A DNA stretch of 64,000 nucleotides from Nanobdellota archaeon (GCA_021163365.1 JAGGWW010000007.1:13929-77928); one strand, 5' to 3'. Shown: positions 2,466 through 41,989, numbered from the stretch's first letter. The notes: a model not told the origin generated them from the letters alone. Made by a program: numbers and translations.

Positions 2466-3937
2466 ATCAAGAATTAGTCGATGAGGTTAAAGAATACTTT
2501 TGGGAGAAATATATACTTCAACCACCAAGGACAAAGTTAGTGCCTCCTGATGCTAAGTCTCCAGACTTTATAGAATTTTCTCCTGGAGAGTATGTTATTT
2601 ACACAAAAGGATTAAACAAAGGTGTTGTAGCACACGAAATAACTCATTATAGATACTGGGGTTATTCTTTTTACGATGCTTTGATTGCTGAGATTTTTAT
2701 GGGAAAACATTTTAAAAATAAGGCACGCACTTTATTAAGCTATATTGATGATATAATCGCAAATTTAGAGATGGCAAGACAAGGAGATTATATTGATGAC
2801 TTGGCGGATTACTATCATGATGATGTTAAGAGTGCAGAAAAGATTTCTCCAATAAACAAGGTTTTCTTAGCTTTTCTTACATATAAAACAGGATATGACT
2901 TTGGTATTTCTCCAAACGAACTTGATAAGAACTTAAAGAAAAAGATTGAAGAATTAGATAAAATAAATTGGGAACTTGATTTAAATGACAGGCTTGGCTC
3001 TGCTATTAACATATTGTACAATGCTGGAAAAATCCTTGAAGATTTAGTAAAAGAACCTGAAGACGAAGACCTTCATAAGACTAAGATAAAATTTGATGAA
3101 AATGAGATTCCAGAAATCATGGACAAGGTAAAAAGAGATTATCCGAATTATTCAAAAATTGTAGAGGAGTATTTTAATAACAAGCCAGAATTAAGAGAAC
3201 AATTAGATTTGTGGAGATATAAAAATGAACTAAGTAAATATGAGATTAAAATAGTTGGAAAACACCAGTTTGGGAAAAGTGGAAATATAATCAATGGATT
3301 TAAAAAATGGAATGGTGGTGAATTTGACCCAATAAATAGTTTGGGTGTTTTACCTGGCGAATTACCAGGAGACCCAACAGTTGTTGAGCCGATGTTCAAA
3401 GAAAGTTTAATATATGAAAAAAACGAAGTGGATATACCAAATGCTTTTATTATCCTTGATGCATCAAGCTCTATGAGAGGAAACTTTCCAATGCCGCAAA
3501 TTGTTGCTGCCATGCTCTTAGCTAAGGAATATTTATTTAACGATAGGTATGTTGCTGTTGCAACATTTGGTTCACCTGGAACAACAGAGGTTTTTGATTA
3601 CAGTAACAATGAGATGGAAGTTTATAGAAAACTTGTTAGAAACCCAGATGGCAGCACACATCTGGATTTAGACAAAGTTGAAAATATTTTATGGAAAAAG
3701 AAAGGGGTTGATACGTATCTTATTACAGATAGTCCGGGAGGTGGATGGGACAACCTTGTTGATACTTTGTCTTTGCTAAACACACAACGTTCTAGAGGAA
3801 ACGAAGTTTGGGTTTTTTGGGTGAATCCAAATGGGATACCTGATATCGCGAGGAGTTACAAAAACATCAATTATGTTTCTATTAAAAACATAAATGACCT
3901 TGTTCAATTAGTAATTAATAGGGAAAGAAGATTTTAA
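2453..3937 (+). CDS. von Willebrand factor A (VWA) domain protein with an N-terminal HExxH metalloprotease-like motif
   Basis: C-terminal MIDAS motif AFIILDASSSMRG (DxSxS). The N-terminus carries VAHEITHY (HExxH). Start overlaps the stop of the MoxR gene. Confidence 0.7.
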   Translation: MGCLNQELVDEVKEYFWEKYILQPPRTKLVPPDAKSPDFIEFSPGEYVIYTKGLNKGVVAHEITHYRYWGYSFYDALIAEIFMGKHFKNKARTLLSYIDDIIANLEMARQGDYIDDLADYYHDDVKSAEKISPINKVFLAFLTYKTGYDFGISPNELDKNLKKKIEELDKINWELDLNDRLGSAINILYNAGKILEDLVKEPEDEDLHKTKIKFDENEIPEIMDKVKRDYPNYSKIVEEYFNNKPELREQLDLWRYKNELSKYEIKIVGKHQFGKSGNIINGFKKWNGGEFDPINSLGVLPGELPGDPTVVEPMFKESLIYEKNEVDIPNAFIILDASSSMRGNFPMPQIVAAMLLAKEYLFNDRYVAVATFGSPGTTEVFDYSNNEMEVYRKLVRNPDGSTHLDLDKVENILWKKKGVDTYLITDSPGGGWDNLVDTLSLLNTQRSRGNEVWVFWVNPNGIPDIARSYKNINYVSIKNINDLVQLVINRERRF

Positions 3938-26877: not shown

Positions 26878-27429
26878 TTATTTTATGTTTGGCATTCCAT
26901 GTAAAGTATGTAAAATCAAAAAGTTGGTAATATGTTCTTGGCTGGGAAAACACAACACCAGCGCATGCATGTTGTTTATTTGGTGATATTTGTCCCCATA
27001 CATATCCTCTTTTACAAGAACAAAACGGGCATCTAAACCTGCTGCTTTTGCTAAAATAAGAAACAGCATTGTTTTATGGTAACATGTGCCATTGCCATTT
27101 GTTAGAATGTATTTAATCGCAGAACCTTTAAGTTCATCATTTGCTTTTTCATCGTAATCATACAAGAAGGTTATAGCCATGTAAATTGAAATTGCCTTTG
27201 AAAATTCATCATCCAAATCTTTTGTTATTTTCATTGCAATTTCATACAATGGCTTTGGTATGTACAATGGTGATTTTTCATTTAAAACAGCATATTCCAA
27301 TCCCTCAGAAAGCACAAATAAATCTTTATTAACATATTTTGAAAAATCATGCAAGGCTTTCAACCATCTCACCCAAACTTTTAACAAGTTGCATATTTCT
27401 ATAAACACCGCTATTTGGAAGAATTTCAT
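26878..27429 (-). CDS. Transglutaminase-like cysteine-protease-fold protein, paralogue 2 (last gene of the long operon)
   Basis: GNGTCYHKTMLFLILAKAAGLDARFV… parallels GTCYSMTRVYVALAKSVGLDARIV in the upstream gene. The annotated start overlaps the upstream gene by 83 nt, so the true start is probably internal. Confidence 0.5.
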   Translation of the reverse strand: MKFFQIAVFIEICNLLKVWVRWLKALHDFSKYVNKDLFVLSEGLEYAVLNEKSPLYIPKPLYEIAMKITKDLDDEFSKAISIYMAITFLYDYDEKANDELKGSAIKYILTNGNGTCYHKTMLFLILAKAAGLDARFVLVKEDMYGDKYHQINNMHALVLCFPSQEHITNFLILHTLHGMPNIK

Positions 27430-28159
27430 AAGAGCGCCAAAAGAAATTATATGCAGTTTTATAATCTTTTCTTCTTACACATTCTAAACCAGCTTCATTA
27501 AGAACGCGTGCTTTTTTACTTCTTAATTTTAATTCTTGTGTTGCATAACCACCAGTTAATTGAAGAGCGATCTCACAACACATATAAGCATCATCAAATT
27601 TTTTCTCTTCAATTAAGTTTTCAATTGCAGTATAGTATGGCTGAAGAATATCATATATTATCTCTTCATTTGTTTCTTTTCTTGTAAAAATCCTAACTTC
27701 TTTATGTTGTGCATCACCATCTTCATAAGCTGGGTCAAATAATAAGAATTTATCTTCATTAAACATAACACCAGCGCAAACATGCCCTGGATTAGTTATT
27801 TTTTCTCCATATTCATCAACATAAACTCTCACAATCCTTGCATCTAAGCCAACAGATTTTGCTAAAGCAACATACACTCTTGTCATAGAATAGCATGTTC
27901 CTTCCTTATGTTGAAGAGCATATAATATTGCACTTTTTCCATTTATCTCATCATTGTTATTTTTATATTTAATGTTATCAACAATCCAAGTATGTATTGC
28001 GTATGCTTTTACTCGCGAATCCTTTATTCCTTGCGTTATTTGATTTGCTAATAGAACAAGCTCTATTGGAATCTTTGGGATTGGCTCAGTGGTGTCTATC
28101 TCAATAAATCTCTTTGGGTTTGTTAGATGTATATTTCTAACTAAATCATCGAGGTGCAT
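27347..28159 (-). CDS. Transglutaminase-like cysteine-protease-fold protein, paralogue 1, with a C-terminal helical region
   Basis: Cys (EGTCYSMT), His (NPGHVCAGV) and Asp (FLLFDPAY) in the order and spacing of the transglutaminase-like core. Confidence 0.6.
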   Translation of the reverse strand: MHLDDLVRNIHLTNPKRFIEIDTTEPIPKIPIELVLLANQITQGIKDSRVKAYAIHTWIVDNIKYKNNNDEINGKSAILYALQHKEGTCYSMTRVYVALAKSVGLDARIVRVYVDEYGEKITNPGHVCAGVMFNEDKFLLFDPAYEDGDAQHKEVRIFTRKETNEEIIYDILQPYYTAIENLIEEKKFDDAYMCCEIALQLTGGYATQELKLRSKKARVLNEAGLECVRRKDYKTAYNFFWRSYEILPNSGVYRNMQLVKSLGEMVESLA

Positions 28160-28168
28160 TTAATCACC

Positions 28169-28399
28169 TCATAAATCTCTTAAAATAGCTAAGCCAGTAA
28201 TTATTGAAGTTAGTGCAACACTTGTTGTTGCAATTGCTTTATAATCAATACCATATATTGCTCCGTCTGGAATTGGCAAATAACCATAGAGATAATTCAT
28301 AACCTTTGAAGCGAATTCTGGTGAATACAACATGTATCCACCCATTCCAACTCCACCTACACCAATTCCAAGTTTCATTTTATTAAGCAAACCCATCAT
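28169..28399 (-). CDS. Small Gly-rich membrane protein (76 aa)
   Basis: GIGVGGVGMGGYML… and a C-terminal TM helix. 9 nt upstream of the transglutaminase-like gene. Confidence 0.4.
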   Translation of the reverse strand: MMGLLNKMKLGIGVGGVGMGGYMLYSPEFASKVMNYLYGYLPIPDGAIYGIDYKAIATTSVALTSIITGLAILRDL

Positions 28400-28512: not shown

Positions 28513-29688
28513 TTAACTCACCTGTTTCCTGTGTTCATCAATTTTATTAACTAATTCTTCTAAATCTTTGAACTCCTCAGAAACCTTGTCTTTGTGCCTT
28601 TTGTATTCATCAACCCATCTGTATAATGACGAGCGTGTGTCTTTAATTACCTCAACTAAATCAGCGTGACATAGTTTTCTACTTGGGTCTTTAATGTGTT
28701 CTTTTAAAGCCCTTCTTCCTGCTTCTGCACATATTGCTGTTATATCTGATGATGCATAGTATTGCGTCATTCTTGCTAATTCATCATAATTAATATCATT
28801 TGAAACTAACAACCCGTCAAGTGATAATTTAAACAATTCTTTTCTTGCTTCAAAATCTAATGGGTCAACTCTTATATGATAGCCAAATCTACCAGACCTT
28901 AAAAGAGCTGAGTCAATTCCCCAAACCTTGTTTGTTGTTCCAACAACTAAGACTGATTTTCCTGTTATTATATCAAATGATGATAAAAACTGATTAACTA
29001 ATCTTTGAGCATAAGATGACCTATTTCCACTTCTCGACATTCCTATTCCATCTATTTCATCAAAAACAATTATTGCTGGTTCTTTTTCTGCTGCTTCTTC
29101 AAAAACTCTTTTTAGATTCTTTTCGCTAACTCCAACGTATGAACTTAAAACACTGCTTGCATCAATGTAAAGAAATGTCACTTTCTTGCCTAATCTTTTA
29201 CTTGCTTCTCCTGCTGCAGCTTTTGCTATGTATGTTTTTCCACAGCCTGGTGGACCATACAATATTATTCCGCTTGCCATGTAATCCTTTTTTACAAACT
29301 TGAAAAACAAATCTGGATTTTCTAATGGCAATATTATTGCATTGTAGAACCTGTCTTTTACTTCTTGCATACCAGCAACTTTGTCAAATGTTAAATCTGG
29401 AATTTCTACTTCAAATGATTTTACAACATCTTCTTTATCATCTCCTTCTCTAATTGCTGTTTTCTTTGGTGCTGACAATGCTTGAGCTTTTGCTTTACAT
29501 ATTTCAATTTGATTTTGAAATGCATTTATTGCTGTTTCATCTTTGCATAACTTTGTTGCTTTCAAAAGCTCTTGAGCTGCTCTTATGTAATTAATCGCTG
29601 CTTGATTGTAATTTTTAGTAGCTTCTTGTTCTCTTGCTATTTTTACATATTCATTCGCTGCTGCAACATGAGGTGTGTATGAGTCCAA
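28513..29688 (-). CDS. MIT-domain AAA+ ATPase of the Vps4/CdvC-spastin-katanin ('meiotic') clade
   Basis: The N-terminal three-helix region (AAANEYVKIAREQEATKNYNQAAINYIRAAQELLKATKL) resembles a MIT domain. Single AAA cassette with Walker A ILYGPPGCGKTY, Walker B IIVFDEID and a second-region-of-homology/Arg-finger segment (…SALLRSGRFGYHI). Confidence 0.8.
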   Translation of the reverse strand: MDSYTPHVAAANEYVKIAREQEATKNYNQAAINYIRAAQELLKATKLCKDETAINAFQNQIEICKAKAQALSAPKKTAIREGDDKEDVVKSFEVEIPDLTFDKVAGMQEVKDRFYNAIILPLENPDLFFKFVKKDYMASGIILYGPPGCGKTYIAKAAAGEASKRLGKKVTFLYIDASSVLSSYVGVSEKNLKRVFEEAAEKEPAIIVFDEIDGIGMSRSGNRSSYAQRLVNQFLSSFDIITGKSVLVVGTTNKVWGIDSALLRSGRFGYHIRVDPLDFEARKELFKLSLDGLLVSNDINYDELARMTQYYASSDITAICAEAGRRALKEHIKDPSRKLCHADLVEVIKDTRSSLYRWVDEYKRHKDKVSEEFKDLEELVNKIDEHRKQVS

Positions 29689-30245
29689 ATGATCACCTCC
29701 TTTTTAAATCCAAGAAGCTCTTCAAGGTCTTCTTCAAGTTTATTTATTTCTAGCCGCTGTGGTGAGACTTCGTTTGAGAGATATTCTTCCATTAGTTCTT
29801 TTCCTCTATAGGGCTTTAACATGGATTCTCGCTGCGAAATAAACAGCAGATCTAAAAAAAATTCCCTTAATTCTTCAGCTGCCGTAAAACCACGCTTAAT
29901 AGTATACCTATCACTAGCAGAGTTTTCTATCGAATACCTTAATCCTTCGATTATTTTTTTAAGTGCAACCACATAAAACTCTAATGCGCATGTATTCTTT
30001 ACATACCTAGCATGTGTAGTCATCCTTTCTGCTAAGAAATCCCAATATTTCTCTGCTTCCTCTAGTTTTCCTTCGTCTGTTAGAGCCTCTGCCTTTGGCC
30101 GTATTGTGTCTATTTCTCTTCTTAATGTTCTTACTGATGTAACATAGCGTGTTAGTTTTTCTGATGCTTCTTCAAATCTCTCTTCCAGCTCTCTAATTTT
30201 TCTCCTGTACCATAACGCCATGAAAAAACCAAACATACGCACCAC
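29643..30245 (-). CDS. Coiled-coil protein, candidate ESCRT-III/Snf7-PspA-superfamily member (paralogue of 30259..30840)
   Basis: N-terminal amphipathic MVRMFGFFMALW. Shares LTDEGKLEEAEKYWDFLAERM with its neighbour. Acidic C-terminus with EEDLEELLGF. Overlaps the AAA gene start by 46 nt. Confidence 0.45.
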   Translation of the reverse strand: MVRMFGFFMALWYRRKIRELEERFEEASEKLTRYVTSVRTLRREIDTIRPKAEALTDEGKLEEAEKYWDFLAERMTTHARYVKNTCALEFYVVALKKIIEGLRYSIENSASDRYTIKRGFTAAEELREFFLDLLFISQRESMLKPYRGKELMEEYLSNEVSPQRLEINKLEEDLEELLGFKKEVIIWTHTHLMLQQRMNM

Positions 30246-30258
30246 TGTTTAACGTTGT

Positions 30259-30840
30259 TTATGCAACAGCGCCTTGTAATTGTTGAAGTTGTCTCTCTAA
30301 TTCGCTTTCTTGTGTTTGTATTTGTGATTCTCTTGCTTGTTTCTTTTTCAAATATTCTTGCATTAGTTGTTCTCCTTCTGTTGTCAATTGTGTATCTATT
30401 ATGTAATCCCTAGAATATGTATGTACTTCCTCTGCACTTTCTACATCATTCAAAACAGCCTCTATTCCATCGTCCCTTTCTCCAATCTTTGCTTTTTTCT
30501 TTTTTATCCTCTTCAAAGCACGTTTAGCAATGCGTTCTAATTTCTTTGTGTTGTATTGAGTGTCCATTAATTCATTACCAATTTTTTGTGAAGCAACCTC
30601 CCATGCTCTTCTTTTCCTCTCATATAATTCAAACTGCTTCTTTGCTTTTGCTACTTGATTCCAATACCTCTTTGCTTCATCTAATCTTCCTTCATCTGTT
30701 AATTGCTCTGCAAGTGTTCTGTTGTAATCCATGTTAGCTTTTGCTGTTCTTGCTTTTTGTTCGTACGTTTTTGCCACTGCTCTTGCGCTTTCCAAGTCAG
30801 CTGGTTTCACATAGCCAAGTAAGCTAAATAACCCCAACAT
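30259..30840 (-). CDS. Coiled-coil protein, candidate ESCRT-III/Snf7-PspA-superfamily member with a MIM1-like C-terminal helix
   Basis: N-terminal MLGLFSLLGY. A basic helical hairpin (…KRRAWEVASQKIGNE…KRALKRIKKKKAK), then an acidic tail ending SELERQLQQLQGAVA (L-x-R-x-L-x-x-L, close to MIM1 D/ExxLxxRLxxL[KR]). Conserved LTDEGRLDEAKRYW with the neighbour. Confidence 0.45.
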   Translation of the reverse strand: MLGLFSLLGYVKPADLESARAVAKTYEQKARTAKANMDYNRTLAEQLTDEGRLDEAKRYWNQVAKAKKQFELYERKRRAWEVASQKIGNELMDTQYNTKKLERIAKRALKRIKKKKAKIGERDDGIEAVLNDVESAEEVHTYSRDYIIDTQLTTEGEQLMQEYLKKKQARESQIQTQESELERQLQQLQGAVA

Positions 30841-30844
30841 CTTT

Positions 30845-31873
30845 TTACACCTCCTTTTTTATTAGATATCCCTCTCCAAGAGGGAAGAGCATGGTTTTTT
30901 CTAAGTGCCTTAAAGATTTCTTAGATAGATTTAAATCATGTGTTAAAAACCTCTTAGAAACAACATCGTTTTTTGCATTTTCTTTTATTACGTCATAAAT
31001 TGATTTAAATCTATCATCAGTAAAATAAACTTTGTAGTAACCTGCAGCTGTATCTTTTTCGTTATATATAAGTGTGTTGCTCGATAGTTCATAAATGAAT
31101 ACTGGATAACTACCAAAGTACCCATTTACAAATTCTTTCAATTCATCGCTTGCTTTTTGAACAACATAACAAGTGATTTCTTTTTTCTTTGACTTCTTAG
31201 TTATCTCATCCATTGTTGGTTCTTTATTTTTATATTCGCAAACAATTTTGAAATCTTTATGTTTGCCGATAACCTTTTTTTCTTTTTTATTATATGTAAC
31301 CTTTAATTTTCCTGTTAAAATCTCGCCTTTTGGGTATGGAACATAGTCTGGAGGAAATCTTTCTAACTTTGAATAAACTTTTAACAAATAGTGCGACTCG
31401 TCCTCACGTTCTTTTTCCTCTTTAAGAATGTAAACATCATTTAATTCAATTGATTTCTTTACCTTTTGTAATTCACGTGAAAATTCCGTTAGTAAATAAT
31501 CACCAAACAACTTTCTTGATTTTCTAATATAATCTGCGTTTGCTGTTTTTTTAACTAATGAGATTCTTTCATGAACAGCTTCTAAGAGTTCTTTTTGTTC
31601 TTTTCTTTCATCATATGTTTCTCCAATTATCAAATTATCAACATTAGACTTTAATGTAAGAACATCCATTCTAATATCTGATAAAGAGTTCCAATACTTT
31701 GTCCAATCTTCATCTTTGTTTAAATAAATCTCTTTTCTTGTTGATTCAACTAATGTTTCTAATGAATCCAAATCCTTAGCTATCTTGTTTGACAAATCTA
31801 TTATTTTCTTTTCATATCTCCACGACATAAACTTCTTGTAAACACCTTCAATTAACAATAGGGCCAAACTCAT
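30845..31873 (-). CDS. Membrane-anchored hypothetical protein (342 aa)
   Basis: Single N-terminal TM (SLALLLIEGVYKKF), then a K/E-rich soluble region. Overlaps the upstream gene by 26 nt. Confidence 0.45.
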   Translation of the reverse strand: MSLALLLIEGVYKKFMSWRYEKKIIDLSNKIAKDLDSLETLVESTRKEIYLNKDEDWTKYWNSLSDIRMDVLTLKSNVDNLIIGETYDERKEQKELLEAVHERISLVKKTANADYIRKSRKLFGDYLLTEFSRELQKVKKSIELNDVYILKEEKEREDESHYLLKVYSKLERFPPDYVPYPKGEILTGKLKVTYNKKEKKVIGKHKDFKIVCEYKNKEPTMDEITKKSKKKEITCYVVQKASDELKEFVNGYFGSYPVFIYELSSNTLIYNEKDTAAGYYKVYFTDDRFKSIYDVIKENAKNDVVSKRFLTHDLNLSKKSLRHLEKTMLFPLGEGYLIKKEV

Positions 31874-33026
31874 CTTCTACCCCCCTTAGGATTTGTTCGA
31901 AGGTTCTTCTAAAGTAAGACTTAACTTTATTTTCATCAAGACGAGGGTCAAAAGCACTTACTAAGTTGCCTAAGCCATCACCATATTTCTCAGAAAGCTC
32001 TTTAATAGCGTTCTCCCTTCCCTTAAAGATTGTATTTAGAATATCAATAAGTTCATCTCTTGTAATTCCACTTCTTGCTTTTTCAACTGCAGAGGTAAGT
32101 TGTTCTATTTTTCCTTCAATCGTATCTATTTCTTCTGCACTAACGCCTTTAATAGCATCTATCTTTTTTTCAAGCTCGTAAATAGCGCTGTAAACATCTC
32201 TTAACAACCTTTCTTCTACTTCGCTTTGATTATCAACAGCATGCTGAAGTTTGTCAAGCTCTTCTTCAATTTTATACAATCTTTCATTGTATTTTTCTTT
32301 TGCAATTGTTTGCTTTAATCTATCTATGTCTTGTTTGATTTCACTTAATCCGACGTCTAAAACCTTTGCAAGTTCTTCATTTGATTTATAAAGACTTGAT
32401 ATTTCTCCTTCTAAAACACGAACTTTTCTTTCTAAATTTCTAGGCACTTCTTGATACTCATCTAACTTATTCTCAAGTATCCGTTGAGCAGAAAAAACAG
32501 CTTCTTTTATAGAATTTTCAACATCTTCCAATTCCTTTTGTGAAACCATTGTTTTGTTTTTATAATTGAAAACAAATTGCGAATCAATTAATTTTATACC
32601 CATATTTGACATAGCGTAAGACATCTTAGTGTGTGCATGTGCTTCAAATTCATTTTTTGAATCAACTATTTCCTCCAAACTCTTTGTTTGTAAATAGTCA
32701 TCAGCTATTGCCTTTGTTTTGCTAAACATAATTCCATCTAAGCACTCTTGTGGTGTTTTGTACGATGGAAGCCTTGTTAACAACTTGTTGATGTTTTGAT
32801 ACTCAACTGTGTAAAGTGCAGTAATCTCTATCTCATAACCGTCCTTTGAATAGCTGCTAAAAACATATTTAAGTTCAGAATCCAAATCAGCGTATATCTT
32901 TGCATTTTGTGGCCCAACATATTGCTTCTTTATTTTTCCTTTTTTTCTTTTAGCAACAATTGTTCTTGGAGAAGCAAGGCGCTCCCAGGATTTAACCTCC
33001 ACCCCATTTTTAATTCCCTTTACCAT
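31848..33026 (-). CDS. SPFH/band-7-like protein with a long C-terminal coiled coil (flotillin-like architecture)
   Basis: N-terminal …GPQNAKIYADLDSELKYVFSSYSKDGYEIEITALYTVEYQNINKLL… is compatible with the SPFH core (TKDnv.v.vd.vv.yrv.d). Residues about 170-330 are heptad-rich. Confidence 0.4.
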   Translation of the reverse strand: MVKGIKNGVEVKSWERLASPRTIVAKRKKGKIKKQYVGPQNAKIYADLDSELKYVFSSYSKDGYEIEITALYTVEYQNINKLLTRLPSYKTPQECLDGIMFSKTKAIADDYLQTKSLEEIVDSKNEFEAHAHTKMSYAMSNMGIKLIDSQFVFNYKNKTMVSQKELEDVENSIKEAVFSAQRILENKLDEYQEVPRNLERKVRVLEGEISSLYKSNEELAKVLDVGLSEIKQDIDRLKQTIAKEKYNERLYKIEEELDKLQHAVDNQSEVEERLLRDVYSAIYELEKKIDAIKGVSAEEIDTIEGKIEQLTSAVEKARSGITRDELIDILNTIFKGRENAIKELSEKYGDGLGNLVSAFDPRLDENKVKSYFRRTFEQILRGVEDEFGPIVN

Positions 33027-33142
33027 TTCAGCTTACCTCCCATTAATTTTAAGAAATAGCTAATATAATCATGAATACAATTGAATACATCTTAAGAAAA
33101 ATAAAAATGTTTGAAAAAAATTTCAGAAAACAGGTCATTGAG

Positions 33143-34222
33143 CTAGTTTAAATTTGGATTTTTAACGTAAAACCCGTATTTATCTTTGTATTTTGCATAT
33201 ATAGAATAAGCTTTCCTTAAAGCTTCATTTTTTAAAGATGGGTTTTTATCAGCAAAGCTTTCTAAAGCATCTTGTATGCCTCTTAAATCTTTTAATCCTT
33301 CTTTTACAGCTTTTTTATAATACTTTATCCCTTTTCTTAAATGTGATTTGTCATTGCCTTTCAAAAGATGATATATAGATGCGACTTCATATGCAAATGC
33401 GCTGTTGATTCTGAATAAAATATTGATTAACTCTTCTGCATGAGGCTCATCAAACTTTTCAATGGTAGAAACAATGGTTTCAGTTAAACACATATTTTCT
33501 CCAACTACTTGTTTTGCTTTGTTAACGATGTAGTCTTCAAAAAAGAGGAGAGTGTTATTGTTGCAAATCCTCTTAAAAACTTCAGCAAAAGATACAAAGT
33601 CTTTTATATACTTATCATACACTTCTTGTACCAATTCTATTGCTTTATCTGAAATATACATATCAACATCATCTATCGTATCAGCAATTTCAAGAAATTT
33701 TTCACCATCCAATGTAACACCATTGTTAATGAGGGTTTTAATTGTGCGTTCTTTTATAACATCATCATCTATATCTTTAAGCACTTTAATATCTTTAGTA
33801 ATAAGAATATAACTAGCGTACATATCTGCTGCTTCTAGAGGATACCAACATGTCTTCGCGGTATATAAAAGTCCTAATGTTGTATTTGGACCCACGCTTC
33901 TTTCTAATTCCTTCTTTAAGTCAATGTTGTTCATTGCAACGTAAATGTCCATAAACAATGAAAGGTTTACGTTAACATACTTACGTAGCAAATCTATTAA
34001 TGGCTGCTTTTCATTAACAAACTCCAATTCTCTAATAAGTGCTAATAAATCTGACTTATGCAGATAGGATACTTTTCCATCTCTCAAAAGATTCTTAATC
34101 CATGCCTGTAGCAAATTCTTATAATCTTCTTCATCCAATCCAAGTTCTTCGTGCGAATATTTCCAAGGCTCCCAATTTGGATTAGATTTGTACATAGTAT
34201 CTAAAATTTCTTCCAATTCCAT
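33143..34222 (-). CDS. Unknown-family protein, tandem paralogue C (NWEPWKYS…GL…DY N-terminal motif)
   Basis: Shares an N-terminal W-x-P-W-K-x-S-x-x-x-x-G-L-x-x-x-D-Y block and a C-terminal Y.KA(V/L)K.G(L/W)..L..IQ..L..FA………AL..I..IY block with 34667..35710 and 35704..36525. Confidence 0.5.
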   Translation of the reverse strand: MELEEILDTMYKSNPNWEPWKYSHEELGLDEEDYKNLLQAWIKNLLRDGKVSYLHKSDLLALIRELEFVNEKQPLIDLLRKYVNVNLSLFMDIYVAMNNIDLKKELERSVGPNTTLGLLYTAKTCWYPLEAADMYASYILITKDIKVLKDIDDDVIKERTIKTLINNGVTLDGEKFLEIADTIDDVDMYISDKAIELVQEVYDKYIKDFVSFAEVFKRICNNNTLLFFEDYIVNKAKQVVGENMCLTETIVSTIEKFDEPHAEELINILFRINSAFAYEVASIYHLLKGNDKSHLRKGIKYYKKAVKEGLKDLRGIQDALESFADKNPSLKNEALRKAYSIYAKYKDKYGFYVKNPNLN

Positions 34223-34657
34223 TTAAACCACTGGCTTAAGACTTTTTAGATAAACCAAAGCAATCTCATAATCTCTTCCGCTTAATTCTTTTTTCGCATA
34301 TGATTTTAAACGTTCAACATCTTCTTTTCTTAAAAATGGATGAACAAATCTTTCTCTTTTTGAGTTATCCACATAGAAAATTCCTTCTTCTCCACTTAAA
34401 GTAAAAATAATCATATCTAAAGATGGTTTTTTAGATAAATAATCAACAAACCCTTTTCTATTCCCAACAACTTGCTCTGCGTTATTTATAAAATCATGCA
34501 TATCCTTAACTAATCTTTGAAAGTAATTATCAAAAACATGGCTTGCTTGTTTTTCTAAAATATTTTTCAAATTTAACTTATCACTTTCGCACATTTGCTC
34601 AACATTTAAAGGAATACCTTTCAAAAAATTTGATAAATATCTTTCAATCTCTACCAT
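34223..34657 (-). CDS. Hypothetical protein (144 aa)
   Basis: ORF. Stop abuts the start of paralogue C, and the start lies 9 nt after paralogue B. Confidence 0.45.
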   Translation of the reverse strand: MVEIERYLSNFLKGIPLNVEQMCESDKLNLKNILEKQASHVFDNYFQRLVKDMHDFINNAEQVVGNRKGFVDYLSKKPSLDMIIFTLSGEEGIFYVDNSKRERFVHPFLRKEDVERLKSYAKKELSGRDYEIALVYLKSLKPVV

Positions 34658-34666
34658 TTTACCACC

Positions 34667-35710
34667 TCAAACCTTTTTCTTTTTCATGTACTTCTCTATC
34701 TTCTTAGCTGGATTCATTGAATTAAGTAAATAAGACGCAATTCTATCAATGAAAAAGCCCAATGGGAGTGCAAAATAAGTAGTGGAAACAAATGCAAAAT
34801 CAGTGTAATCATAGTAATAATATGTCTCATGAACACCGCTACTATCCCATTCACAAGTATGCGCATATTCGCCTGAAGTAGCTGCAGCAAGTGCTAAAAG
34901 CATTGCTGATTGGATTGCTGCAATCTTAAGTGCAGTTGTTTTATTCCAAACTTCGCTGTACTCCAAATCAAAATCTTCTAAAGAAATAAGCTCTCTTGGG
35001 TTTAATGCAAATTCTGGATTCTTCTTATAAATATTAACTATGCTCCTTAATGCTAAATAAGAGTAGAACCTATTGCTTTGTTTCACATCTTCTGCAAAGT
35101 TATACAATGCCTTTTGAAGAGCTTTTAAACCATCTTTATACTTTAAAGCATTCCAATAATGTGGGAATCCTTTTATTGCCATGCGCTTTCTTTTTCCAAC
35201 CTCTTCATCAGCAGTAAGATGTGCTACTGAAAGCAATATGTGTTTTATTGGATTTTTTGATTTACTTAATAATTTCTCTAATGTCTCAACATCTTCTTTT
35301 TTCAAATCATACAATAAATCAATCTTTTCATTAAGTATAACTTCATTAAGCAAACTGTAGTCATTTGTACTATGAATTACTTCAGCTAATGTAAAGATAC
35401 CTGAGATACCTGTTGAATAAAGCATCTTTACTGATTCATAGCTATTAGCTACAATATCTTCTCTTGGGTTTAACTCTTTAGCTCTTGACATAAGCACATC
35501 AGCGAGCTCGAAAATATCTCTGCTATTTTTTAACAAACCATTATCCAAAGCTCTTTTAGCATATCTATTAAGCAAAAGCAAATAATCTCTTTTTGACAAA
35601 CCAAAGTCCTTTGGTGATTTTTTCCACGGCTTCCATTGAGAATCTTCCATATTTTCGCCAATAATTTTTTCCAAATTTGGGGGCTTGTACATTTCCATTT
35701 TTATCACCAA
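34667..35710 (-). CDS. Unknown-family protein, tandem paralogue B (QWKPWKKSPKDFGLSKRDY), with a hydrophobic C-terminal extension
   Basis: Conserved N- and C-terminal blocks as for paralogues A and C. An extra about 80-aa C-terminus with a hydrophobic segment (ALKIAAIQSAMLLALAAATSG). Confidence 0.5.
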   Translation of the reverse strand: MVIKMEMYKPPNLEKIIGENMEDSQWKPWKKSPKDFGLSKRDYLLLLNRYAKRALDNGLLKNSRDIFELADVLMSRAKELNPREDIVANSYESVKMLYSTGISGIFTLAEVIHSTNDYSLLNEVILNEKIDLLYDLKKEDVETLEKLLSKSKNPIKHILLSVAHLTADEEVGKRKRMAIKGFPHYWNALKYKDGLKALQKALYNFAEDVKQSNRFYSYLALRSIVNIYKKNPEFALNPRELISLEDFDLEYSEVWNKTTALKIAAIQSAMLLALAAATSGEYAHTCEWDSSGVHETYYYYDYTDFAFVSTTYFALPLGFFIDRIASYLLNSMNPAKKIEKYMKKKKV

Positions 35711-36525
35711 TTTTCAAGTATGTAAATAATCTTATCTTTGATTGTTTTTCTTTGGATATATCTGTCAATCAAATTTGCTAAGTTAAAGAAAAACAAACGT
35801 TTATCAAAATAATCTAATTGTATAATATCCTGTGGCTTCTTTGAGTCAAAAGGATTATTTCTGTAAATTTTAACAATCTCCTTAAGTGCAGTTATTGAAA
35901 GTAATGGATGCACTTGCTTAGCAAACTCATGCAGTTCTTCTTGAATCGCAAGAAGATTTTCCCATCCTTTTTTCACAGCTTTGTTTTTATACCAAAGTGC
36001 CTTGTCCAAGCTTAAAAGTTTGTTTGTATTAAGATGATATAGGGATATCAAAAAATAACCAAGGGCTGTTTTTTTCTTTTTTAATCTTTTTATATCCTTT
36101 TTTGAGAACTTTTTAACAATATCTTTGTTTTCCAAAACAAATTTAGTAACTGCATTGTTTTTATATTTTGACTCGCTTCCATGTGTAACCAAATAAACTA
36201 ATGCTTCTTTTTTGTCTTTACTAATCTTTAAATAATCCAGGTATAAATCCTTTGCAGTGCTATGTTCGCCTTGTGCAAGTCTTTCTGCTAAGTCAAATTG
36301 GTAATCAAAACGTTTACGCTCAAAGATGTGTAATTCTAAAATCTTCTCTGCCCAATAGCATAAAAATGAATCAAAATCATCTTTTTTAAGATTAACTTCT
36401 TCAGGTGAAACACTTAAAGGATTCCAATCACTATTATGTTTAAATAATTTATCAACGAGCTCGGGTAATTCATCTTCGTATTTGAATGCATAATCCACTT
36501 TAACCACCAAGATATTTTTCAACAA
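35704..36525 (-). CDS. Unknown-family protein, tandem paralogue A (DWNPLSVSPEEVNLKKDDF)
   Basis: Conserved blocks as above (ALWYKNKAVKKGWENLLAIQEELHEFAKQVHPLLSITALKEIVKIYRNNP). Confidence 0.5.
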   Translation of the reverse strand: MLKNILVVKVDYAFKYEDELPELVDKLFKHNSDWNPLSVSPEEVNLKKDDFDSFLCYWAEKILELHIFERKRFDYQFDLAERLAQGEHSTAKDLYLDYLKISKDKKEALVYLVTHGSESKYKNNAVTKFVLENKDIVKKFSKKDIKRLKKKKTALGYFLISLYHLNTNKLLSLDKALWYKNKAVKKGWENLLAIQEELHEFAKQVHPLLSITALKEIVKIYRNNPFDSKKPQDIIQLDYFDKRLFFFNLANLIDRYIQRKTIKDKIIYILENW

Positions 36526-38035
36526 GCAATCTATATTTATCAGGAATTAAATCCAAGACATTTTCATCTTTCTTTTTTATTAACTCATCTACTAACTCCT
36601 TCTTTTTTTCTTTTATTTCACCCATACTCACTTTTATTAAAGTAGGAAGATAATCAAATCTTATTTCATCAACAGGCGTGTATTTCGCAATATTTTCTAA
36701 TAAAATAATTCCTCCAACAAGAGTTTCTGAATCAACAACATTCTTAGCATAAAAAAGCTCATTAGCTATAACCTCTGCTGTAGCCATACTATAAATATGC
36801 TTGTAATCTTCATCTTTAACACTTTGATGTTTTCCAGATAGTTTGTGGAAATTCCTCACCAAACTATCGGAAACAAACATGCTTGCAAAATTTCTTATTT
36901 CTTCTGATGCTTCCTTCTTATAAAGCGATGCATATGTTAAATATCTGGCAGTTAAATAAACCATCTCTGGGAAGTCTTCATAGTTAAACACATCTATCAA
37001 ATCGCTAAGCTTTGATTCATTATCTAATGGTTTTTCATAGATATCTCTAACTATTTCATAAAATGTTTTACCATATTTCGAAAAAATATACCTGTGTGCT
37101 ATTGAAAGACGTTCTTCTCTTTTAGAAAGATTTAGCAAATCATTGAAAAAGCCAGTCATATCTTTGCTTAGGTTCTCAAATATTCCATCAAATTCATCAT
37201 TAGATATCCTATCTATAACATTAATCTCCTTTCTTTTATTTAAATAAGCACCTCCGAAGCTAGATATGAAATAAATAAAAGCTTCATTATCTTCAAGTGT
37301 TGCTACTAATTCATTTGTTTTTTTGAGAAAATTCAACAAGCCGTTCAATGTTGAATAACCAAAAGCACTAAAAACATTGTTATCTCTTTCAACCAATTTT
37401 ATGAATTCATTAACAGAAATCGCATGACCGCTCCCTAAGCTAAGATTTGCAGTTTTCTGAAACCCTATTGAAATAACTTTTTCAATTGTATCTTTTCTAA
37501 CCTGATTATATCCAAATGACAAAGCAGAAACCAACTTATTCTCATTTAGAACGCCTATCTTTTTCTCAAAATCATTTGTTACATCTTTGTACTTTTCTAA
37601 GAAATCATTTACAAACGTAAAACTTATATCTAAAGATGGAGTTATTTCTAAAAACTCAGACAATTCTTTTACGAACCTCGTATCTTTTTCAACTAAAGAA
37701 TAAAGTTTTTCGATTGAAGTTTCTTCTGGAACAACTGGTACAAAAGAAATATCAACATATGTAAGAAGAGAATAAAACTCTTTGTTTATAGAATCAATAG
37801 CTTTCGGCAGATAATTTTTGCATTTTTCATAAAGCACGCCATTAACAATGGTTGCAGTGCTTTTTCTTCTATCTGCATCTTCTAATTCATATATTGCTGT
37901 ATCAATAAGGTCTTCTAATTTTTTTGTTTCCATACCATATTGCTTAAAAACACTAATCAACTCTCTTAACATCTCCAATTCATCCTTTGTTTTCAGCACA
38001 TCATTTAAAAGCCCATCAAATGGCATATTTATCAC
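36500..38035 (-). CDS. Hypothetical protein (511 aa)
   Basis: Long ORF, overlapping both neighbours (20 and 26 nt). Helical, D/E/K-rich. No family recognised. Confidence 0.5.
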   Translation of the reverse strand: MINMPFDGLLNDVLKTKDELEMLRELISVFKQYGMETKKLEDLIDTAIYELEDADRRKSTATIVNGVLYEKCKNYLPKAIDSINKEFYSLLTYVDISFVPVVPEETSIEKLYSLVEKDTRFVKELSEFLEITPSLDISFTFVNDFLEKYKDVTNDFEKKIGVLNENKLVSALSFGYNQVRKDTIEKVISIGFQKTANLSLGSGHAISVNEFIKLVERDNNVFSAFGYSTLNGLLNFLKKTNELVATLEDNEAFIYFISSFGGAYLNKRKEINVIDRISNDEFDGIFENLSKDMTGFFNDLLNLSKREERLSIAHRYIFSKYGKTFYEIVRDIYEKPLDNESKLSDLIDVFNYEDFPEMVYLTARYLTYASLYKKEASEEIRNFASMFVSDSLVRNFHKLSGKHQSVKDEDYKHIYSMATAEVIANELFYAKNVVDSETLVGGIILLENIAKYTPVDEIRFDYLPTLIKVSMGEIKEKKKELVDELIKKKDENVLDLIPDKYRLLVEKYLGG

Positions 38036-39920
38036 TCACACTTTTTACATCAACATAATCATCAAGGTAACTAGTTTCATATGCTGCAAGAGCATCGTAA
38101 GAATGTTCAAGTTCATTAAAATAAGAAATAATGTCAAGCTTAAGCTTCAAATACTTTTTATAATCAACATATGTTATGAAATCTCCACTTTCCTTTAAAA
38201 TATCAATTGCTTTAACTAACTTTGTAATCAAGTCTGTTTGCTTATACAAAATCAAATAACGCATTAAAGTATACCTGTTTATCTCTTCTTTATTTTTTAA
38301 CTTCCTTTCTTCAAAATCATTTAATCTTTCTTCAAGCCCACCTTGGACTTCTGAAAAATATTTGTAATCTTCATTAAGAATGCAGTTAGTATAATTCTCC
38401 CATGATTCAAAAAATCTCTTTACATGTTTTCCTTTAAGTTTTGGCTCAAGCAAAACAGCTTTAATTGGATCCACAGAATTTTCTATAATTTTACTAAGTT
38501 CTTTATAACCTCCATCTCCTTCTATTTCACAAAGCACATCCCACAAAAATGGATTCAATGAATCTTTGTTAATAGCTTCATCTATAAGCTTGCGCGCTTC
38601 TTCATGTTTGCCATTTTTGAATTTAGCAAGTGCAAGCCTACCTCTTAAAGAGGAATCATACAAACTTGGCACAACACTATGTATACTTAACTCTTTCTGT
38701 AGACTAACTGCTTTTTGAAGCAATCTCTCTGCTTGTTCATAATCCTCTACCATAAGTTTAACCCCACCAGCAAAAGCGTAGTAAAAACCATCTTCTTCTA
38801 TCATTTTCTTTGCTAACTCAGAAGAAAGCTCGCCTATGTTTGAGATTTTTTTAAGCAAATCCTTTAAAATAGGTAAATCATCCTTTAAATCATTATATAA
38901 ATCTCCTTCTGCGTGTTCGATTTCTTCTGCATATTCGATTAAATCCTCACCGACAATAAGTGCAACAGAGTAAAAGATATCCCTTTTATCTTTATCCATA
39001 TTTTTATAACTCTCTATAACTCTTCTTGCAGTATCCTTTGAATAATTAATTAATTCTGTGTAATGTTCTCGGGGCATTTTAATTCCTATTTGTGCTTCTT
39101 TAACAAAAAGGCGCTTGAAGTAATTGAAGAACTTAACAAAACCCATAATCTCTTGATAATTAAATTCATATGTGTCTCTTCCTCTTTTTACATCCAATGC
39201 TTTTCTTGCTACTTCTTCATAATCTGAATACAAACCACTTAAGAAAAGCAATTTACCTTCTTGGAATATCTTTTCATAAATACCTTCATCAGAATAAGCA
39301 GGCCTACATCTAATCCTTATTCTAAATGCTTCAATTGTTCTAAGAATTGCTTTTGCCATCTTATTGCTTGCTACTTTTTTATTTCCATTGGTAAGTGCCA
39401 TTGCAATTGCTTCTATGGCATCCCTCTTACATGTAGTAAACAACTCTTCTCCTTCATATTCTGGAACATTCATTACCCTTGGATCGAATCTTAAGTCTTC
39501 AATTATCTTTTTTCCAGCTTCTGTTTTGCCTGTCATTGTAACATAAAAAAGTCTGTAATACGGTGCAATATTACCCCAGCCTTCATTAGAACGTGTTAAT
39601 GTTAAAAGCAAAGAAGAAACATCTAGATTAAAATAATACTCTAATGGTGCAAGAAAGATTGTTACATCATAGTCATCGTGTTCTTCTGCAATTTCATCAA
39701 GTGTTTTTTTAATTCTCTTGTAATTTTCTGCCTCATCATAATATTTAAAGCGCTCTGGGTTTAATTCATCATGTTTAAGCAGCAAAACCAAATCAATGTC
39801 AGAGCATGGGTCTGTGCTTCCAAATGAGAATAAAGAAAACCTTTTATCCCTAAGATTAAGCTTACTAAGAATCTCAGATACTATTTCCTTTTTAACTTCC
39901 TCTCTGCCCATCGTTATCAC
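38016..39920 (-). CDS. Nucleotidyltransferase (Pol-beta fold) fused to a long TPR-like helical domain (634 aa)
   Basis: N-terminal FSLFSFGSTDPCSDIDLVLLLKHD (hG[GS]…DxD) with a third acidic residue in DYDVTIFLAP. The remaining about 480 aa are helical repeats. Confidence 0.6.
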   Translation of the reverse strand: MITMGREEVKKEIVSEILSKLNLRDKRFSLFSFGSTDPCSDIDLVLLLKHDELNPERFKYYDEAENYKRIKKTLDEIAEEHDDYDVTIFLAPLEYYFNLDVSSLLLTLTRSNEGWGNIAPYYRLFYVTMTGKTEAGKKIIEDLRFDPRVMNVPEYEGEELFTTCKRDAIEAIAMALTNGNKKVASNKMAKAILRTIEAFRIRIRCRPAYSDEGIYEKIFQEGKLLFLSGLYSDYEEVARKALDVKRGRDTYEFNYQEIMGFVKFFNYFKRLFVKEAQIGIKMPREHYTELINYSKDTARRVIESYKNMDKDKRDIFYSVALIVGEDLIEYAEEIEHAEGDLYNDLKDDLPILKDLLKKISNIGELSSELAKKMIEEDGFYYAFAGGVKLMVEDYEQAERLLQKAVSLQKELSIHSVVPSLYDSSLRGRLALAKFKNGKHEEARKLIDEAINKDSLNPFLWDVLCEIEGDGGYKELSKIIENSVDPIKAVLLEPKLKGKHVKRFFESWENYTNCILNEDYKYFSEVQGGLEERLNDFEERKLKNKEEINRYTLMRYLILYKQTDLITKLVKAIDILKESGDFITYVDYKKYLKLKLDIISYFNELEHSYDALAAYETSYLDDYVDVKSVSDKYAI

Positions 39921-39931
39921 TTTAAAGTAGA

Positions 39932-40690
39932 TTATATTTCATAAACTTTTCCCTTAGAAAGTATCTCTAGATTTGTTTGCATATTCTCTGGAACATGAAC
40001 AAGATAAAGCCTTTCTTTAACATCATCTGGCAATGCTTCTAAGTTTCTAACATGTGTGTGAAAATATTCACCAAATTCATCAGTTGCTTCATGTAAAATT
40101 ATATGACAATCCCATCCAAAATCAATATTATTGTGGAAAAATTCTTCATCTATAATTCCATTGTAAAACAAGTGTTTTAAAAGTCTGGGATTGTAATTTG
40201 TATCTCCACTATAAAACAATCTTTTACCATCATATTCAAATATAAAACCAAATGCAGGCACAGGATGATAATTTTCTCTAATCCTTATTGATATTCCATT
40301 TTCTTTAAATTCTTCACCAACCTTTAGTTCTTTAAATTCAACTAAATCATCTAAATCAAACACTGTGGCTTTTGTAACATTATTTGGAAGTGCATAGCTT
40401 GGAGGATTTCTAAACATGATATCAAATATTTCCTTAAATCTGTTAAAAACCTCTTTTGTTGTATAAATCTTTGTTTTTTTGTTTGATTTATATCTCTGTA
40501 AAAGAAGTGTGAATATATCGCCAAGATGGTCTGGGTGCACATGTGTAAGGATAATATTATTAATCTCCTGTGCATTAATCTTTGATATATCTTTTGGACA
40601 TTCAACAAGATAAACATCACTAGCGTAAATTAAAAAAGAAGTGTTTTCTATTGAAGTTGCATTTCCTATTCCAAGTGCTTTTATTCTCAC
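39932..40690 (-). CDS. Metallo-beta-lactamase-fold hydrolase (first gene of the long minus-strand operon)
   Basis: ILTHVHPDHLGD (HxHxDH) plus downstream His/Asp ligands. 11 nt upstream of the NTase-TPR gene. Confidence 0.7.
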   Translation of the reverse strand: MRIKALGIGNATSIENTSFLIYASDVYLVECPKDISKINAQEINNIILTHVHPDHLGDIFTLLLQRYKSNKKTKIYTTKEVFNRFKEIFDIMFRNPPSYALPNNVTKATVFDLDDLVEFKELKVGEEFKENGISIRIRENYHPVPAFGFIFEYDGKRLFYSGDTNYNPRLLKHLFYNGIIDEEFFHNNIDFGWDCHIILHEATDEFGEYFHTHVRNLEALPDDVKERLYLVHVPENMQTNLEILSKGKVYEI

Positions 40691-40789: not shown

Positions 40790-41989
40790 ATGGATTTTGA
40801 AGAATATTTCAGAAAAACAATAGATTTTGTAATCAAAGAACAAAAAGCACAAGGAATATGGAGCAAAAGAATCAAACACAATGAGCCAAGAGAACTTTTT
40901 AGAAGGATTGTACCAACAAAAGAAGCTGTTGAAACATTAATATATACTGGTGCTTATGGAAATTCCAAAGTAATTAAAGCTGGAATTAAAAACATACTTG
41001 ATTATGAACTTGAAGAGGCAGACCCATTAGAACTTTGGGCAACGAAGCTAAGGATTGCGGAAATTGCTAATAATAAAGAAATTATAAAAGAAATCTCAAA
41101 ATGGCTTAGAAATAAAAACATCCTAAGCACACGATTGCCCATGTTGTTTTCTATGATGTTATCAGAAGCAATAGGTGAAAACATAGACTTAATAAAAAAG
41201 TTAAAAAAAGCAAGAGCAAGAGATGGCAAAGGATGGGGAAGAATTGTTAAGGATTCTAAATCGTACATTACATTTACATCAAACGCTGTAATAGCATTGA
41301 TACTTGCTGGAGAAAATCCAAATGAAACATATCTTCAAAAAGCAAGAATATTTATTGAAAAATCTCAAAATAAAAATGGGAGCTGGAATTCAAGCCCAGA
41401 AACACTTACTAAACCAACAACATATGCAACAGCATTGGCTGTTCAAGCACTAATGCTTCTTTCAAAGAATCCATTTAACAAAGCAGTAAATAACGGAATA
41501 TCCTATTTATTAAAAACAGCACATAAAAAAGGAGGCTGGCCACTTATTAAAAATGAAGAACCCGAGATATATACAACAATGTATGCTGTGAAGACATTGA
41601 GATTCTATAATTATTTAAAAGAAAACAATGAAGAATATTTATCAAAGTTTCTAACACCTCAACAGCTAAGCTGCTATTTGTTTAAAAAATTCACATTCGA
41701 TTATCCAAAGGAAAAATTGATAGATATTTGCATTAAAGACCTTCTTTCATCAAAAGCTATTGCTGCAACACCTTCTGCAATTAAAAGGAGAAGAGACATA
41801 ATAAAAATTCTAATGAAACACACACTTGATGTTGCTGGCATAATAGATAAGTTAAATCAAATGGGATATCACCTAAATAAAAAATCTCACATGACTCAAA
41901 TAAAGTTTGATGTTGAGCATTTAAGAGAAATGAACTTAGTTGATAGAATTAAAAATAGGTACTTCGTTGTTGTTGATTTAGGATTTTAA
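40790..41989 (+). CDS. Prenyltransferase/terpenoid-cyclase-like alpha-alpha-toroid repeat protein
   Basis: Repeated Q/GxW units (KAQGIW, GKGWGR, KNGSWN, KKGGWP) of the squalene-cyclase/prenyltransferase beta-subunit repeat type. Divergent from the long operon. Confidence 0.45.
   Translation: MDFEEYFRKTIDFVIKEQKAQGIWSKRIKHNEPRELFRRIVPTKEAVETLIYTGAYGNSKVIKAGIKNILDYELEEADPLELWATKLRIAEIANNKEIIKEISKWLRNKNILSTRLPMLFSMMLSEAIGENIDLIKKLKKARARDGKGWGRIVKDSKSYITFTSNAVIALILAGENPNETYLQKARIFIEKSQNKNGSWNSSPETLTKPTTYATALAVQALMLLSKNPFNKAVNNGISYLLKTAHKKGGWPLIKNEEPEIYTTMYAVKTLRFYNYLKENNEEYLSKFLTPQQLSCYLFKKFTFDYPKEKLIDICIKDLLSSKAIAATPSAIKRRRDIIKILMKHTLDVAGIIDKLNQMGYHLNKKSHMTQIKFDVEHLREMNLVDRIKNRYFVVVDLGF

Follow-up and report, generated by a model that had tools for sequence, protein, structure and literature searches.

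Three genes in a 64,000-nt stretch of archaeal DNA (GCA_021163365.1, JAGGWW010000007.1:13929-77928) are, as judged from sequence comparisons, genuine and anciently diverged paralogues. The genes, here named A, B and C, are located on the minus strand within an operon of ~13 kb whose downstream half encodes an AAA+ ATPase with an N-terminal MIT domain, two probable ESCRT-III-like proteins and an SPFH/Band-7-like protein. Together with the gene for an unrelated 144-aa protein (u144) they form a 3.4-kb block, A-B-144-C, between the genes for a 511-aa protein (u511) and the SPFH protein. We tentatively interpret the products of this block as lineage-specific scaffold or adaptor subunits of an ESCRT-III/Vps4-type operon, with B tethered to the membrane. 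Below, "the window" denotes the whole 64,000-nt stretch, and all coordinates are counted from its first letter. The host label, Nanoarchaeota (DPANN), is that of the submitter.

An earlier inspection of this DNA (hereafter the sequence-only reading) had predicted three open reading frames (ORFs), and these are present on the minus strand at 35704..36525 (A), 34667..35710 (B) and 33143..34222 (C); every sequence block quoted for them is found in the translations. At 31% GC the composition of the DNA predicts a stop about every 13 codons. Despite this all three ORFs, of 273 to 359 codons, are intact, which strongly indicates that they are genes. The listed lengths of 273, 347 and 359 aa hold for the ORFs, but two of the proteins are probably shorter: A would start at the GTG codon at 36498 (264 aa), which has GGTGG five nt upstream and lies 1 nt past the u511 stop codon, and B at the ATG codon at 35698 (343 aa), which has GGTGAT upstream. 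The A ORF ends in TGA followed by TAA, and the TGA stop of B is in frame with the next gene. C (359 aa) is longer than A in its middle, where ~110 aa of helical sequence are inserted.

The three genes had been described as a tandem triplication. They are indeed neighbouring paralogues on the same strand, but u144 (34223..34657, minus strand), which is unrelated to them and has its own ribosome-binding site (GAGGTGG), separates B from C. The start codon of C abuts the u144 stop codon, and C lacks a Shine-Dalgarno-like motif whereas A, B and u144 each have one. Successive junction gaps along the block are -26 nt (+1 with the revised start of A), -7 nt (+5 with the revised start of B), +9 nt and 0 nt, and this tight packing agrees with the proposed location inside an operon. 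The relative synonymous codon usage of A, B, u144 and C lies at a distance of 0.10-0.13 (background 0.098 +/- 0.025), and their GC contents fall inside the range of the other genes in the window.

Composition-adjusted BLASTP aligned A and B over nearly their full length (E = 3e-11; 27% identity over 252 aa). For the other pairs the matches coincided with two conserved blocks, the C-terminal and N-terminal ones giving 3e-8 and 1e-7 for A and C, and 6e-4 and 7e-6 for B and C. Smith-Waterman scores compared with 300 shuffles gave z = 15.5, 9.1 and 5.8 for the three pairs, against z = 0.3-0.6 for three control pairs with neighbouring genes. Together these results strongly indicate that the similarity between A, B and C is real and not a low-complexity coincidence. 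A three-way alignment contains 32 invariant columns, clustered in the N-terminal and C-terminal blocks. The N-terminal block, with the invariant pattern N..W.P...S.....L...D, comprises residues 33-55 of A (DWNPLSVSPEEVNLKKDDFDSFL; 36361..36429), 25-47 of B (QWKPWKKSPKDFGLSKRDYLLLL; 35570..35638) and 16-38 of C (NWEPWKYSHEELGLDEEDYKNLL; 34109..34177), all on the minus strand. The C-terminal block of ~75 residues, with the pattern S..HL...K...A.K...L..Q..L..FA...AL...IY, comprises residues 154-225 of A (35851..36066), 155-232 of B (35015..35248) and 275-350 of C (33173..33400), on the same strand. The pairwise scores of only 33-49 bits support the proposal that the duplication is old. No fourth copy was detected when a profile of the three proteins was used to search the six-frame translation of the window, and the family has been seen in one species-level population only.

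In agreement with the description of the family as unrecognised, scans of A, B and C against Pfam, NCBIfam, PADLOC and PHROGs gave nothing credible. In PADLOC, A and B had no match and C had a single marginal one (RT_UG21, E = 4.8e-4, 17 bits), and the best PHROGs value was only 0.06. Profile searches of PDB sequences gave no match; in the Pfam scan neither the Sel1 model (PF08238) nor the Bro1 domain matched any of the three proteins, and no Bro1/ALIX structure was among the 50 best Foldseek matches of A. A word-indexed search of 5.8e9 clusters with C retrieved no protein other than C, which is listed there as hypothetical and assigned to a 'Nanoarchaeota archaeon' metagenome-assembled genome (MCD6547133.1), and an exhaustive HMMER search of 1.84e9 representatives with the three-sequence profile returned only A and C. 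The failure to return B, which is part of the query profile, shows that the representative library is incomplete for this contig, and this weakens the negatives obtained from it. At this scale, moreover, relatives that diverge from A, B and C as much as these do among themselves could fall under the threshold. We therefore ran a small targeted search of the seven syntenic loci described below; no relative of A, B or C was found among their six-frame ORFs with a hidden Markov model (HMM) or phmmer (best E 0.13-0.45). Viral contigs scanned with the A/B/C alignment did not yield a relative either. Taken together, the sequence comparisons indicate that A, B and C constitute a new family that curated collections do not recognise.

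Several candidate relatives were rejected. The proteins L022_289, L022_355 and L019_392, which occupy the equivalent operon slot at other loci, gave an hhalign probability of 0.2%. L019_845 and L022_715 were discarded despite BLAST E-values of 0.002-0.005 to A, as were u511 and its homologue in contig L024. A TPR protein of contig L017 (BLAST E 0.001 on 54 residues) gave nothing in hhalign, and a relationship between the hydrophobic tail of B and the tails of the L022 and L019 proteins was rejected after comparison. Database entries exist for A ('...ENWW', P0002) and for a 491-aa fusion of B and u144 (contig L027). Both are gene calls made under genetic code 4, in which TGA is read as Trp. TGA recoding was rejected: these calls concern the same DNA, and because the conserved genes of the window are intact under code 11, we treat the two entries as artefacts of the gene caller.

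The AlphaFold2 model of A, calculated on the three-sequence alignment, is all-alpha (pLDDT 77.4, pTM 0.75). Its helices, 10-18 residues long and separated by short loops, repeat with a period of ~29-37 residues and form four to five hairpins plus caps, the conserved C-terminal block corresponding to two helical hairpins and a capping helix. Foldseek searches with this model against the PDB and viral models gave weak generic matches only (TPR, Sel1, LapB, MamA, KLC and Sec17; E >= 0.04, TM-score <= 0.34) and no enzyme, Bro1 or other specific fold. The antiparallel hairpins and their period resemble those of the TPR and Sel1-like repeat (SLR) alpha-solenoids of Pfam clan CL0020, and the C-terminal block contains the pattern A..Y....A..YY.KAV, which is typical of such repeats. 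The model thus leads us to propose, with some reserve, that A, B and C are each a TPR/Sel1-like alpha-solenoid of ~4-5 helical hairpins, with an N-terminal W-x-P cap and a C-terminal two-hairpin block. If so, the novelty of the family resides at the sequence level and not in its fold, which by the model is not new and belongs to a common class of scaffolds that bind other proteins. The family differs from TPR/Sel1 proteins in its own N-terminal cap (W-x-P-W...G-L...D-Y) and in the predicted C-terminal membrane hairpin of one copy, B.

This extra hydrophobic C-terminal extension of B, noted before, is indeed present (34724..34933, minus strand). On hydropathy, it consists of two hydrophobic segments, the acidic and aromatic loop between them, and a basic tail at the end: residues 258-279 form a transmembrane-grade segment on the Kyte-Doolittle scale, residues 305-329 a second, aromatic hydrophobic segment, and the tail contains KKKK. 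By these features the extension would fit a membrane hairpin anchor with both ends in the cytoplasm.

Evidence on the nature of the operon comes first from the ATPase (28513..29688, minus strand), which has a Vps4/CdvC-like architecture. A profile built from its N-terminal 75 aa and those of 13 full-length orthologues matched the MIT domains of Sulfolobus Vps4/CdvC (2w2u, 2.5e-9; 4lcb, 1.2e-6; 2v6y) and also those of human VPS4A/B, calpain-7 and MITD1; the single sequence matched the Pfam MIT model at E = 0.005. According to Makarova et al. (2024; PMC10936438), archaeal Vps4 is recognised by (i) an N-terminal MIT domain and (ii) ESCRT genes nearby. The ATPase has such a domain, and its neighbours include two adjacent ESCRT-III-like genes, identified as such by fold ranking and motifs only. 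The Vps4 C-terminal domain (PF09336) was not detected in the ATPase at E <= 0.01, and the best PDB sequence scores were those of the D2 domain of Cdc48/p97. On the sequence evidence, the MIT-AAA part of our reading of the operon as an ESCRT-III/Vps4-type system may be considered well supported. Many AAA homologues of this ATPase in Altiarchaeales, Micrarchaeota and related metagenome-assembled genomes have an N-terminal TPR in place of the MIT domain.

The two ESCRT-III-like genes, cc193 (30259..30840) and cc200 (29643..30245; probable start ATG 30236), lie in tandem on the minus strand in the order cc193-cc200-ATPase, are paralogous at 2e-9 and encode matching hydrophobic N-termini (MLGLFSLLGY and MFGFFMALWY). 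Throughout the cc family the hydrophobic N-terminus is kept, and a C-terminal helix keeps hydrophobic residues at i, i+4 and i+7 as in MIM1; in cc193 this MIM1-like motif (ELERQLQQLQ) is located 4 residues from the C-terminus. The model of cc193, built from a two-sequence alignment, has helices at residues 13-49, 53-96, 98-116 and 126-192. Its best Foldseek match was CHMP1B (prob 0.99), followed by Snf7, Asgard ESCRT-IIIB, Loki CHMP4-7, CHMP2A/3, PspA and Vipp1; ESCRT-III structures made up six of the seven best matches, with E-values of only 0.06-1. In its architecture cc193, of ~200 aa, displays an alpha1-alpha2 hairpin plus shorter helices and a C-terminal MIT-interacting-like motif, and an MIT-AAA gene is adjacent. 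From the fold ranking and the motifs we consider it probable that cc193 and cc200 are ESCRT-III proteins.

Upstream of these genes is that of the 392-aa SPFH/Band-7-like protein (31848..33026, minus strand), which has a long coiled coil. PF01145 matched its residues 57-150 with 25.0 bits (cut-off 23.6), and stomatin chains matched the same region weakly (E ~0.06). SPFH coiled-coil proteins have been described in the neighbourhood of bacterial PspA as well as at archaeal ESCRT loci, and such a neighbour is present in the 'Meth_adaptin' loci as it is here. Like archaeal Cdv (ESCRT-III/Vps4) systems, the operon combines an MIT-AAA ATPase with two ESCRT-III-like proteins of ~190-200 aa and a MIM1-like helix. 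It differs from them in the lack of a Vps4_C hit, of CdvA and of Snf7 or PspA matches for cc193 and cc200, and in the additional presence of nucleotidyltransferase, metallo-beta-lactamase-fold (MBL) hydrolase and transglutaminase-like genes. ESCRT-III has been reported in all major archaeal lineages except DPANN (PMC7619361), to which a 2024 review assigns FtsZ-based division (PMC7617429), and our full-text searches did not turn up a report of ESCRT in DPANN. Published archaeal ESCRT loci carry lineage-specific, patchy accessory proteins and include SPFH, TPR and HEAT contexts (PMC10936438).

Synteny of the operon extends to at least six distinct metagenomic contigs (L017, L019/L020, L021, L022, L023 and L024, the last equal to L026), and L025 contains the ATPase and one cc-like gene only. 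Full-length ATPase orthologues (43-46% identity) were found only in metagenomic contigs; a scan of a genome collection with the ATPase gave distant bacterial AAA proteins only, and a metagenome scan with an SPFH alignment returned just the L024 contig once more. Among the core proteins of the syntenic loci the ATPase alone has a Pfam annotation. L024 and L021 contain homologues of the SPFH coiled-coil protein (32% identity, 5e-47), of a 342-aa protein (2e-41), of an ESCRT-III-like protein, of the ATPase and of a small membrane protein. In L021 two cc copies of 64% identity are located on either side of the ATPase. L024 represents the closest locus: in it a u511 homologue (1.6e-13) is followed after 105 nt by the SPFH homologue, and A-B-144-C is absent. 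The absence of the block from L024 and all other loci indicates that the core system works without it, and that A-B-144-C is a lineage-specific insertion and not a conserved component.

The number of copies thus varies, as the sequence-only reading had proposed to check, from three here to none elsewhere, and the equivalent slot can have occupants that are not homologous to A, B and C. In L022 (4556-6489) it contains a tandem pair (4e-25) of another family, and in L019 (6263-7441) one copy of that family, which is unrelated to A/B/C and has a conserved VRNPGP.SL motif and C-terminal hydrophobic segments. The L022 pair shows that paralogues expanded a second time, and independently, at this place in the operon. 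An unrelated protein with a C-terminal transmembrane anchor is encoded upstream of the core in L019, L021, L022 and L023, in L022 as a tandem pair. L017 also has a transmembrane-anchored protein, a true TPR protein, but there an opposite-strand 1241-aa gene lies between it and the core.

Logan contig L027 (SRR21462135) provides a strain variant that is 99.3% identical to the window over 5382 nt (32154-37535) and has no indels. Twenty of the 38 differences fall within a hypervariable tract of C (33335..33436, minus strand; codons 263-296), where the conserved C-terminal block begins. In this tract 13 nucleotide changes affect 10 replaced codons, all conservatively (I/V, R/K, V/L, H/Y), and 7 changes are synonymous. 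Such a pattern points to a more divergent allele, still under constraint, that either recombined into C or was switched to during assembly; a third possible cause is a hypervariable patch. Outside this tract there are five replaced codons and one synonymous change in B and a single replacement in A, together 6 against 1, which are small counts. One of the changes in the C tract, His285Tyr, replaces a histidine that is invariant in A, B and C, and this argues against a catalytic role of that residue.

How could the products of the block serve the operon? In the interpretation that we favour, if only tentatively, the C-terminal hydrophobic hairpin of B would anchor this protein on the cytoplasmic side of the membrane, and A and C would be soluble partners. 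The shared end-blocks would be surfaces through which the three proteins bind one another or a common partner, and their divergent middles would confer differing binding specificities. This platform would recruit or position the SPFH/ESCRT-III-like polymer, or a cargo or site, on the membrane, and the MIT-AAA ATPase would then remodel the polymer through MIT-MIM contacts. The block would in that case be a lineage-specific, non-homologous counterpart of upstream targeting modules such as CdvA, ESCRT-I/II and Bro1. The earlier proposal of a hetero-oligomeric or specificity-diversified component fits the variable operon slot and is reasonable. An adaptor role is favoured by the anchored proteins upstream of the core in L019, L021, L022 and L023, by the TPR-AAA fusions in other DPANN and by the lineage-specific accessory proteins of published archaeal ESCRT loci.

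Like A, B and C, CdvA of Thermoproteota, ESCRT-I/II and Bro1/ALIX of Asgard archaea and eukaryotes, and arCOG09748/arCOG08177 of Euryarchaeota are encoded beside ESCRT-III-like and MIT-AAA genes. The Bro1 domain has a TPR-like core. The upstream components just named are lineage-specific and patchy (PMC10936438), and one member is membrane-associated, as would be the case for A/B/C. Nevertheless, neither the sequences of A, B and C nor the predicted fold gave a detectable likeness to these components, none was among the 50 best fold matches of A, and the PRC barrel, winged-helix and steadiness-box elements are lacking; the likeness would be positional and functional. A more specific version, in which the operon is an unrecognised DPANN ESCRT-III/Vps4-type system and A/B/C are its membrane-anchored, hetero-oligomeric, TPR-like targeting module in the role of CdvA or ESCRT-I/II, strikes us as unlikely, though worth stating.

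Several observations weigh against the scaffold or adaptor interpretation. A, B and C are linked to the ESCRT-like proteins by co-orientation and tight spacing only, and relatives were absent from every syntenic operon found, including L024. Between C and the SPFH gene lies a 116-nt gap (33027-33142) that is AT-rich, contains a T-run and has GGAGGT before the SPFH start, so that there may be two transcription units. The fold model of A is based on just three sequences, and none of the TPR HMMs (TPR_1/2/8/11/12/14/16/19) matched A, B or C at E <= 0.1 in an hmmscan of Pfam, the same scan that picked up TPR in the neighbouring 634-aa protein. The Snf7 (PF03357) and PspA (PF04012) HMMs did not match cc193, cc200 or nine homologues, a cc profile reached CdvB among PDB sequences only at E = 1.1, and the E-values of the ESCRT-III fold matches are high. 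Finally, most of the few strain differences in A and B alter the protein sequence, which is compatible with weak constraint.

Some of these observations would also be explained if the block were a fast-evolving, lineage-specific cassette that sits in a permissive site and is co-transcribed with the ESCRT-like machinery but otherwise unrelated to it. Its products might be proteins that an episymbiotic archaeon uses in host interaction or in conflicts. The cassette would account for the direct adjacency of the u511 and SPFH homologues in L024, the lack of the block at all other loci, the want of relatives among 1.84e9 proteins, the different and unrelated genes that hold the slot in L019 and L022, the hypervariable tract in C and the excess of non-synonymous differences in B. 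Other features speak against it: the codon usage and GC content of the block are those of the host, its junctions with u511 and those within the block overlap or abut, and no mobile-element genes, repeats or viral relatives were found. Moreover, the anchored proteins upstream of the core in L019, L021, L022 and L023 argue for a slot that has a function and against insertion at random. On balance we regard such hitch-hiking as somewhat unlikely, but as a serious contender. That A, B and C instead serve the MIT-AAA ATPase, as alpha-SNAP/Sec17 serves NSF or as a TPR-AAA fusion acting in trans, appears improbable to us. Alpha-SNAP/Sec17, a helical-hairpin sheet of ~290 aa that is the partner of the AAA ATPase NSF, was one of the weakly matching folds in the search with A (9nlz chains I and H, ranks 6 and 47, prob 0.69 and 0.38, TM-score 0.26), and many ATPase homologues in Altiarchaeales and Micrarchaeota carry an N-terminal TPR. 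The Sec17 match however does not stand out from dozens of generic TPR matches, and there is no SNARE-like partner here; in addition the MIT domain already provides the ATPase with a targeting domain of its own, A/B/C lie five genes away from it, and orthologous ATPases work without them.

The lack of homologues outside one population and the near-neutral substitutions outside the C tract, although small in number, would be expected if the ORFs were decaying duplicates or mis-called frames. This is very improbable in view of the length of the three intact ORFs relative to the expected spacing of stops, the retention of the end blocks after deep divergence, the ribosome-binding sites at A, B and u144 and the confident fold prediction for A. 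The ORFs are also intact in the independent assembly, in which the replacements in the C tract are conservative and accompanied by the 7 synonymous changes. Least probable of all, to the point of being nearly negligible, is an enzyme family in which Ser161, His164, Asp50, Asp74 and Lys175 (A numbering) form a catalytic site. These polar residues are invariant in all three copies, but invariance among three sequences is weak evidence, the helical-repeat scaffold fold predicted for A gave no enzyme matches, and a catalytic Ser/His/Asp site was rejected on account of H285Y, the natural replacement of the invariant His by Tyr in the C variant of L027.

Taken alone, A, B and C are an orphan family of a common fold class and of modest interest. 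Their value lies in the context: they mark a variable slot in a conserved operon with MIT-AAA ATPase, ESCRT-III-like and SPFH proteins, and this context may outweigh the family to which attention was first drawn. If the assignment of the context is correct, ESCRT-type machinery extends to DPANN, and operons with the block, without it or with unrelated anchored proteins in its place would offer a natural comparison, from which one might learn how minimal cells direct ESCRT-III polymers to their membranes. If the block is in addition a targeting module, the upstream end of ESCRT systems would have arisen anew several times from unrelated scaffolds, also in a superphylum thought to be ESCRT-free.

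The remaining genes of the operon belong to a co-oriented minus-strand string that runs from 40690 to ~26900. It starts with the MBL-fold hydrolase gene (39932..40690), which is conserved in L019 and whose product has a weak Apyc1-like match, followed by the gene for a 634-aa nucleotidyltransferase with TPR (38016..39920), conserved in L019 and L022, and by u511 (36500..38035), which is translationally coupled to A. The gene for the 342-aa protein (30845..31873), conserved in L024, L021 and L017, lies between those for the SPFH protein and cc193. A 76-aa membrane protein gene (28169..28399) is conserved 3' of the ATPase gene in L021 and L024, and two overlapping transglutaminase-like (PF01841) paralogues (26878..28159; 2e-14 to each other) end the string. 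Among the syntenic loci that were examined we noted no gene of this type.

Divergent from the operon is a squalene-cyclase/prenyltransferase-like gene (40790-41989, plus strand). L019 and L020 share such a divergent gene, followed by those for the MBL hydrolase and the nucleotidyltransferase. The recurrence of this trio suggests a regulatory or nucleotide-signalling module on the ESCRT-like core. Other parts of the window carry archaeal chromosomal genes, including those for Orc1/Cdc6, an ABCE1-like Fer4+ABC protein, IMPDH and an aminoacyl-tRNA synthetase. Near the start of the window (1134-3937, plus strand) a MoxR-like AAA ATPase gene (PF07728, PF20030) overlaps a gene for a 494-aa protein that has no Pfam match, and these two may form a MoxR-partner pair.

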